From a virus (taxonomy: Duplodnaviria > Heunggongvirae > Uroviricota > Caudoviricetes): DNA of 9,005 nucleotides. Positions 5,354 through 6,075 of the stretch are shown piece after piece. The stretch lies in the IMG/VR virus record IMGVR_UViG_3300014919_000042. One strand, 5' to 3'. Each line of letters starts with the position of its first letter. The first letter of the stretch is position 1. The notes beneath the pieces were generated by a model, which saw only the letters and a list, made by a program, of their open reading frames with translations, searched no databases and was not told the origin of the DNA. Both the position numbers and the translations under genes were made by a program.

Positions 5354-5379
5354 AATAAAAACTTGTAAAATCAGTTAGT

Positions 5380-5400
5380 TTACCCTTAATCCCTGTCACG
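5380..5400. other. Approximate prophage/host attachment junction (att core region)
   Basis: In the mlrA frame the translation reads ...LPLIPVTLRAWQRRYGLLKPQ. Downstream of about 5392 it matches the MlrA N-terminal region as I recall it (PVTLRAWQRRYGLLKPQ); upstream it does not, and an in-frame stop lies at 5356..5358. Exact crossover needs the other junction or an uninterrupted allele. Confidence 0.6.
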
Positions 5401-6075
5401 TTACGCGCGTGGCAGAGGCGTTACGGATTGCTGAAACCGCAACGGACAGACGGCGGTCATCGGCTGTTCAACGATGCCGATATTGACCGGATCCGCGAGA
5501 TCAAACGCTGGATCGACAACGGCGTGCAGGTCAGCAAAGTTAAAATGCTGCTCAGTAATGAAAATGTTGATGTGCAGAACGGCTGGCGCGATCAGCAAGA
5601 AACATTACTGACTTACCTGCAAAGCGGCAATCTACATAGCCTGCGAACGTGGATCAAAGAGCGCGGTCAGGATTACCCCGCCCAGACACTCACCACACAT
5701 CTGTTTATTCCTCTGCGCCGACGGCTTCAGTGCCAACAACCGACTCTCCAGGCGCTGCTGGCGATCCTCGACGGCGTACTGATCAACTACATCGCCATTT
5801 GTCTGGCTTCGGCACGTAAAAAACAGGGTAAAGATGCGCTGGTGGTTGGCTGGAATATTCAGGATACCACCCGTCTGTGGCTGGAGGGCTGGATTGCCAG
5901 TCAACAAGGATGGCGCATTGATGTCCTCGCCCACTCGCTCAATCAACTACGCCCTGAACTATTCGAAGGCCGTACATTGCTGGTGTGGTGCGGTGAAAAT
6001 CGAACCTCCGCCCAACAGCAGCAACTCACCAGTTGGCAAGAACAAGGCCATGATATTTTCCCACTCGGCATTTAA
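5392..6075 (+). pseudogene. mlrA: mlrA (yehV) MerR-family regulator of csgD/curli, 5'-truncated by the prophage insertion
   Basis: Translation LRAWQRRYGLLKPQRTDGGHRLFNDADIDRIREIKRWIDNGVQVSKVKMLL ... QEQGHDIFPLGI corresponds to MlrA from about residue 18 to the C-terminus. No ATG or upstream ORF supplies the missing N-terminal HTH segment. The ORF track only finds a TTG at 5428. Confidence 0.88.

Follow-up and report, generated by a model that had tools for sequence, protein, structure and literature searches.

The 9,005-nucleotide stretch of DNA analysed here (IMG/VR virus record IMGVR_UViG_3300014919_000042, classified in Caudoviricetes; the whole stretch is called the window below) very probably holds the integrase-proximal junction of a lambdoid prophage that has integrated in the 5′ end of mlrA (yehV), splitting the gene and abolishing MlrA function. 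MlrA is a MerR-like activator of csgD (PMC3715855). Positions 1–5391 of the window are phage DNA and positions 5392–9005 are chromosomal. A preliminary description made from the letters alone had recognised an mlrA frame ending at 6075 and ascribed its missing 5′ end to a prophage, and both points are borne out by the analyses below. The features on which the argument turns are as follows.

5392–6075, plus strand: promoterless 3′ part of mlrA (yehV), codons 17–243 and stop (227/227 amino acids compared with K-12).
5392–5411, no strand: the 20-bp attachment-site core CCTGTCACGTTACGCGCGTG in mlrA codons 17–23, common to attB, attP and both prophage junctions.
5354–5391, no strand: phage-derived arm running from the int stop to the core, in place of mlrA codons 1–16 and the mlrA promoter (kept in JLK-2012 and YYZ-2008).
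5356–5358, plus strand: in-frame TAA closing the mlrA frame on its upstream side (sequence and translation).
5389–5391, plus strand: ATC taken by RefSeq and the Prokaryotic Genome Annotation Pipeline (PGAP) as the start of a 228-residue ‘MlrA’ coding sequence in the identical sequence of strain VR50 (VR50 record).
5428–5430, plus strand: TTG at codon L29, the first canonical start left in frame (open reading frame list and sequence).

Alignment to the uninterrupted gene places the break precisely. Nucleotide identity with K-12 sets in at 5392 itself, where codon P17 opens, and the translation of 5392–6072 corresponds to MlrA residues 17–243, identical at all 227 positions to K-12 MlrA (reference L002, 4867–5598; BLASTP, E 3e-172, with the placement given by tblastn), ahead of the stop codon at 6073–6075. 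The preliminary description had the frame start at about residue 18; the truncation itself stands, while the residue was off by one. It had also placed an in-frame stop just upstream, which is the TAA at 5356–5358, two bases into the arm that opens at 5354, the first base past the integrase stop codon (5351–5353). According to the open reading frame list there is no in-frame ATG, GTG or TTG between this TAA and the TTG at 5428; the latter is preceded by AGAGG at 5414–5418 and is a possible internal initiation site. The fragment thus has neither the start codon nor the native promoter of mlrA.

The missing N-terminus is not encoded elsewhere in the window or in another frame, an outcome that would have overturned the preliminary description. 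A DNA search did not find the first 47 nt of mlrA anywhere in the window, even with three mismatches allowed; tblastn of MlrA residues 1–30 against the window at a very permissive threshold matched residues 17–30 and not 1–16; and the K-12 btsS–mlrA intergenic region gave no match in the window beyond chance level by blastn-short. The arm at 5354–5391 is unrelated to the K-12 sequence upstream of the core. An autonomous new promoter for the truncated gene was considered and is unsupported, as a promoter scan of the int–mlrA interval returned no sigma-70-like promoter on the plus strand upstream of the truncated frame. A corresponding scan returned no terminator-like site on the plus strand between int and mlrA. 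Because neither kind of site lies between the two genes, read-through fits as the only plausible source of transcript for the mlrA remnant.

The position of the break coincides with a known phage attachment site. The core CCTGTCACGTTACGCGCGTG occurs once in the window, with none expected by chance, and alignment shows it to be identical in K-12 attB, at both junctions of strain ECMA0423, at the integrase-distal junction of strain CEA601S, and in phages JLK-2012 and YYZ-2008. Together with the C at 5391, which is phage-specific, the core forms a 21-bp repeat; the JLK-2012 record labels this repeat ‘attL’, the YYZ-2008 record ‘direct repeat due to prophage insertion’. The integrase-side ends of these two phage records continue into mlrA sequence as the window does, with an identical junction sequence. 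K-12 has an intact attB carrying the core, as do representatives of E. albertii, E. ruysiae, E. whittamii and further Escherichia lineages. Scanning genome contigs for the core gave nine loci, of which none matched the window exactly.

CEA601S, 19AR1724 and ECMA0423 each have a reciprocal junction next to btsS. From ECMA0423, an indel-rich assembly, both junctions could be retrieved, as mlrA 5′ end–core–phage DNA (L007) and phage integrase side–core–mlrA 3′ part (L009). In CEA601S and 19AR1724 the integrase-distal junction lies ~220 bp from btsS, where PGAP annotates the 66-nt mlrA stub as a ‘hypothetical protein, missing C-terminus’. The sequence at this junction in the relatives consists of mlrA codons 1–22 followed by a TGA from phage DNA, and GATATTAAYCCTGTCACGTTACGCGCGTGACGCAAC spans the join between mlrA codons 14–22 and the phage. 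Because these reciprocal junctions carry the mlrA 5′ end together with the core, the event appears to have been a conservative site-specific insertion that duplicated the core, rather than a deletion. The junction in the window is the integrase-proximal one, and is thus attL or the ‘left junction’ in lambda and Shaikh–Tarr naming, even though it lies on the 3′ side of mlrA.

Two further observations concern the attachment site. For the base preceding the 20-bp core, in mlrA codon N16, CEA601S has C (AAC) at its integrase-distal junction (L003, 19048–19050), and ECMA0423 (L007) and K-12 attB (L002) have T (AAT); the phage side always has C, the codon is synonymous either way, and E. albertii and MOD1-EC7003 also have AAC. 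The C/T difference could reflect the position of the crossover or natural host alleles. Separately, in CP170191.1 (L006), a record titled Enterobacter hormaechei B56, the core (5291–5310) and the mlrA 5′ end do not differ from E. coli across the 100 nt inspected, and elsewhere in the locus identity to the window is only ~83%; the attachment site may be conserved beyond Escherichia.

The genes abutting the junction identify the type of prophage responsible, and they also contain, with mlrA, the sites of a published pair of diagnostic primers.

3779–4033, plus strand: intact excisionase gene xis, 84 residues (Pfam DUF1233, phrog_539).
4067–5353, plus strand: intact tyrosine integrase gene int, 428 residues, stop at 5351–5353 (Pfam, phrog_1).
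4882–4901, plus strand: site of primer F (yehVLJfor), inside int (exact match; primer from PMC3874044).
5683–5705, minus strand: site of primer B (yehVLJrev), inside mlrA (exact match; primer from PMC3874044).

The integrase carries the Pfam domains Arm-DNA-bind_2 and Phage_integrase and matches phrog_1 (integrase, E 1e-82). Over 100% of its length it is 97.2–98.8% identical at the amino acid level to the integrases of JLK-2012, Stx2a_1447/WGPS2, BP-4795, YYZ-2008 and VT1-Sakai (Sp15, the Stx1 prophage of O157:H7 Sakai), with the next integrase group at only 82% identity. The excisionase covers the whole Pfam DUF1233 putative excisionase profile (1–70 of 70, E 2e-29) and matches phrog_539 (excisionase, E 1.6e-37); the coding sequence that matches it is named xisR in the VR50 and 19AR1724 annotation. 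A multiplex PCR for occupied yehV/mlrA has been described in which an F/B band of 824 bp is the signature of a prophage in mlrA (PMC3874044), and the in silico F/B product from the window is exactly 824 bp. The window thus shows the integrase type, excisionase, core, junction sequence and diagnostic amplicon of the mlrA (yehV)-integrating prophage family.

Sp15 (VT1-Sakai)/CP-933V, in yehV of O157:H7, is a member of this family with which the window can be compared. The two share the integration site, the integrase-side junction with mlrA split after the core, an integrase 97.4% identical in protein sequence, an adjacent excisionase and the 824-bp junction product. They differ in that the early-left DNA of Sp15/CP-933V matches only ~45% of window positions 1–5400, at ~94% identity, and in that its host is O157 whereas the backbone here is not specifically so. 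The phages BP-4795, YYZ-2008, JLK-2012 and Stx2a_1447/WGPS2 likewise have the integrase type seen in the window but differ from it in their mosaic early regions. Non-Stx lambdoid prophages in mlrA of the commensal and clinical strains CEA601S, 19AR1724 and VR50 have the same junction, xis and int as the window, and 19AR1724 matches window positions 895–9005 at 98.6%; none of the three matches the window exactly from end to end, and the DUF551 region differs.

A search of 5426 complete E. coli genomes with window positions 4000–6300 (2.3 kb across int–mlrA–yohO, counted at a coverage of at least 80%) found the int–mlrA junction in 453 of them (8.3%). Carriers include O55:H7, O111:H2 and many unserotyped human, animal and wastewater isolates, and the asymptomatic-bacteriuria strain VR50 is 100% identical over the query. 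This frequency bears on whether the junction could be an assembly chimera or sequencing artefact, a concern to which a masked run of 36 N at 859–894 in the window lends some colour, or whether an intact mlrA might sit elsewhere in the genome. An identical junction in 453 independent complete genomes, coinciding with a known attachment core, argues against an artefact. Because the chromosomal mlrA–yehY segment is single-copy in essentially all 5426 genomes (median of one place per genome), a second mlrA copy is a priori very unlikely, and we regard either form of this explanation as extremely improbable.

The consequence of the insertion for the protein is best seen in its DNA-binding domain. 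In MerR-family structures (MtaN, CueR, BmrR), helix 1 spans approximately residues 4–13 and the recognition helix approximately residues 16–26, and in CarH, the closest solved relative, the MerR-type DNA-binding domain aligns from MlrA residue 3 onward. The Pfam MerR_1 profile is matched by K-12 MlrA over positions 1–68 and by the remnant over 16–68 only, so that positions 1–15 are lost and the PF00376 score of the remnant, 26.1 bits, falls under the gathering score of 28.2. The remnant therefore does not contain a complete N-terminal MerR-type winged helix-turn-helix (HTH) of helix 1 and helix 2. The MlrA_helical (PF22270) and MlrA_C (PF22267) domains, in comparison, are matched over their full length. 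What has been lost is helix 1, the initiator codon and the promoter; what is still encoded is helix 2, the wing, the coiled-coil/helical linker domain and the C-terminal domain. The view in the preliminary description that the N-terminal HTH cannot be made from this locus is accordingly right for an intact HTH and too broad for the HTH as a whole, of which recognition helix 2 is retained.

The public annotation of the same sequence tells a different story. In VR50 (L001, 21390–22076) and 19AR1724 (L015, 255–941) the truncated gene is a 687-nt coding sequence named ‘HTH-type transcriptional regulator MlrA’ and has no pseudogene flag, the ATC at L001 position 21390 being window position 5389. 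Against the NCBIfam MlrA equivalog model, which has a cut-off of 417 bits, the truncated frame reaches 512.9, and RefSeq calls the fragment MlrA because this family score tolerates the 16 missing residues. No Shine–Dalgarno-like sequence is evident by eye upstream of the ATC at 5389. We consider the ATC start to be an annotation artefact, and we rejected the 228-residue coding sequence as evidence of function because it starts at ATC and is missing HTH helix 1. Screens for the presence or absence of mlrA that rely on annotation would score such lysogens as mlrA-positive and miss the disruption.

The loss of function can be accounted for by the following sequence of events. The phage tyrosine integrase would have recombined attP with the identical 20-bp sequence in mlrA codons 17–23, in a conservative exchange that would split mlrA with no loss of host bases. 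The native RpoS-dependent promoter, the start codon and codons 1–22, followed by the phage TGA, would then stay at the integrase-distal junction, and codons 17–243 would end up behind int without a promoter or start codon of their own. As the promoter, start and codons 1–22 would be separated from codons 17–243, full-length MlrA would not be made, and any product of the locus would be without helix 1 of the MerR-type winged HTH. Lacking that helix, such a product would not be expected to bind the csgD promoter, and expression of csgD, curli and the biofilm matrix would be lowered. The split of mlrA, its position, the type of integrase, the core and the loss of HTH profile positions 1–15 are seen in the window itself. 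Activation of csgD is thus probably lost in this strain, a phenotype that we derive, like the structure of the far junction in this genome and the competence of the prophage for excision, from the literature and from the relatives. The published record agrees with the preliminary description, which had linked insertion to reduced curli and csgD expression: with a prophage in mlrA the DNA-binding motif is disrupted and curli, biofilm and Congo-red binding are lowered, and excision restores mlrA (PMC5931665). Among 19 non-O157 E. coli that produce Shiga toxin (STEC), four had the insertion, two of these being stx1-negative O145 strains, and mlrA supplied in trans rescued curli in two of the four (PMC3874044).

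Could the truncated gene nonetheless still be a working regulator, with a 228-residue (ATC 5389) or 215-residue (TTG 5428) protein made by int/xis read-through activating csgD? The PGAP annotation without a pseudogene flag, the equivalog score above its cut-off and the int–mlrA interval devoid of a terminator-like site are all compatible with this. There is also experimental material to consider: in RNA-seq of O157:H7 PA20, ‘mlrA distal to prophage’ rose 3.2 log2-fold after SOS induction (PMC5931665), and the distal part of mlrA has been reported to give truncated proteins by run-off transcription, recombinant forms of which returned some Congo-red affinity, as far as the account of Uhlich et al. 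2016 cited in PMC5931665 goes. Against it, the same sources report that distal fragments did not restore biofilm and that csgD was not raised even at high expression, and DNA binding by them was deemed unlikely (PMC5931665); insertion strains show a curli deficiency that full-length mlrA can relieve (PMC3874044). The candidate regulator is also without HTH helix 1 (MerR_1 positions 1–15), and ATC is a very poor initiator with no Shine–Dalgarno-like sequence ahead of it. We therefore think it very unlikely that the fragment still activates csgD.

A different role for the fragment can be envisaged. MlrA's C-terminal domain is the binding surface for YdaM (DgcM), a diguanylate cyclase, and YciR (PdeR), a phosphodiesterase (PMC3715855), and the retained coiled-coil linker and C-terminal domain, if made by int read-through on induction, might act as a decoy for DgcM and PdeR and so constitute a phage input into the cyclic di-GMP/biofilm module of the host. 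We judge this to be improbable; were it true, selection, and not recent insertion, would account for the 227 remaining codons being perfectly conserved.

Returning to inactivation of mlrA by insertion, several considerations weigh against that reading. RefSeq annotates the same sequence as an ordinary MlrA, which, taken at face value, conflicts with inactivation. It is from relatives that the far junction, a complete prophage and the lack of a second mlrA are each drawn, and these would probably, but need not, hold in this genome. Finally, two of the four insertion strains mentioned above were not rescued by mlrA, and other lesions thus often co-determine the curli phenotype (PMC3874044).

Whether the split could be reversed depends on the state of the prophage. 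Because this end has an intact int, xis and core, excision by Int and Xis would restore mlrA exactly, provided that the other end is also intact. The occupant might instead be a decayed remnant that can no longer excise, leaving mlrA permanently inactivated, a reading that changes only this last step. CEA601S, the closest overall relative, has a ~34-kb mlrA prophage with an internal deletion, in which a partial minor tail protein L gene adjoins a partial lysis gene and the annotation lists no terminase, portal or capsid genes, and the VR50 mlrA prophage also contains pseudogenes. Completeness varies among these relatives, however: the mlrA prophage of 19AR1724, also close, is a complete one of ~47.5 kb that includes genes for terminase, portal, capsid and tail. 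Excision requires only int, xis and both attachment sites, structural genes not being needed, and in the window int and xis are intact, as is the core. A non-excisable remnant is consequently a credible possibility that we find somewhat unlikely.

Excision at this site has been observed in O157:H7. A small fraction of unoccupied sites is restored spontaneously or on induction (PMC5931665), and mlrA is spontaneously restored in cultures, from which cured cells are rarely recovered, while induction proceeds without a rise in csgD (PMC5931665). The arrangement resembles the phage regulatory switches of active lysogeny, such as the Listeria comK prophage, where a prophage likewise sits in a regulator gene that precise excision restores. 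For a programmed non-lytic switch the sequence offers the intact int, xis and core at this end and nothing more, and the O157:H7 literature describes rare restored sites and no effective switch (PMC5931665).

The preliminary description had set the insertion in the context of O157:H7 and its Stx1-type prophages. The site and the integrase type are indeed those of VT1-Sakai, but the connection is not a specific one. From 5412 to 9005, the host part of the window shares 99.9% identity with many non-O157 strains, E. coli C, VR50 and O145:H28 among them, and the backbone does not appear to be specifically O157. Over the whole window, the best match among complete E. coli genomes is CEA601S (97% coverage, 98.7% identity), followed by AH20K059 and 19AR1724. 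As had been anticipated, the window is no guide to the presence of stx, since it lacks the prophage late region, where the stx1 or stx2 operon of a Shiga-toxin-converting phage would sit between the Q antiterminator and the lysis genes. In the relatives, the interval from Q to the holin holds tRNA genes and an esterase-type gene in CEA601S, 19AR1724 and the examined part of the VR50 prophage; this gene is a SASA family esterase and, in VR50, a frameshifted DUF6645 gene. No stx is annotated in the CEA601S or 19AR1724 prophages, or in the examined part of the VR50 prophage. The prophage here is thus estimated, from these mosaic relatives, to be more likely a non-Stx one, their stx-free state not being transferable to the window because of lambdoid mosaicism. 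Judging from their record names and general background, the toxin cargo of phages with the same integrase type varies (Stx1, Stx2a or none stated), and the integrase type would thus seem not to predict toxin content. The VR50 mlrA prophage also carries an ompC-like porin gene next to the Q antiterminator (L001, 6618–7700), a phage-borne cargo that is not in the window.

Downstream of the mlrA remnant lie the usual chromosomal surroundings of mlrA, yohO–yehW–yehX–yehY, in the same order as in the K-12 and VR50 annotation.

6135–6242, plus strand: yohO, the first intact host gene downstream (K-12 and VR50 gene order).
6223–6954, minus strand: yehW (K-12 and VR50 gene order).
6959–7885, minus strand: yehX (K-12 and VR50 gene order).
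7878–8993, minus strand: yehY (K-12 and VR50 gene order).

On the phage side, further upstream of xis, are typical lambdoid early-left genes: DUF4222, DUF551, ead/Ea22-like and XF1762/Mom-like. The XF1762/Mom-like frame (1422–1949, plus strand, 175 residues) belongs to the XF1762 family NF045478 (206 bits) and matches phrog_1384, ‘Mom-like DNA modification protein’ (E 3.6e-42), with a Pfam Mom score under the gathering cut-off (22.1 against 27.1 bits); it may serve in DNA modification or anti-restriction as part of the early-left region. The masked or unresolved bases at 859–894 fall within the ead/Ea22-like frame (592–1524), and close relatives match on either side of them. DUF551 is encoded in the window by a single frame of 322 residues (2345–3313, plus strand), in CEA601S and 19AR1724 by a short partial DUF551 pseudogene followed by a 269-residue DUF551 gene, and in VR50 by a partial copy only, and the region looks like a variable, repeat-prone prophage module.

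In conclusion, the split of mlrA by a prophage in this window is an instance of a well-documented, common and already known event in E. coli. It extends slightly beyond the textbook O157:H7/Stx1 case in its non-O157 background and its likely non-Stx prophage, both of which have published precedent (PMC3874044); in the closest relatives examined, too, the mlrA site is used by prophages without stx in ordinary non-O157 backgrounds. MlrA is needed for activation of csgD and hence for the curli and cellulose matrix, and prophage in mlrA ranks among the main documented causes of poor biofilm formation in many pathogenic E. coli, a state from which excision can restore the gene. The junction described here marks its strain as an mlrA lysogen, for which a curli-low phenotype would be expected.

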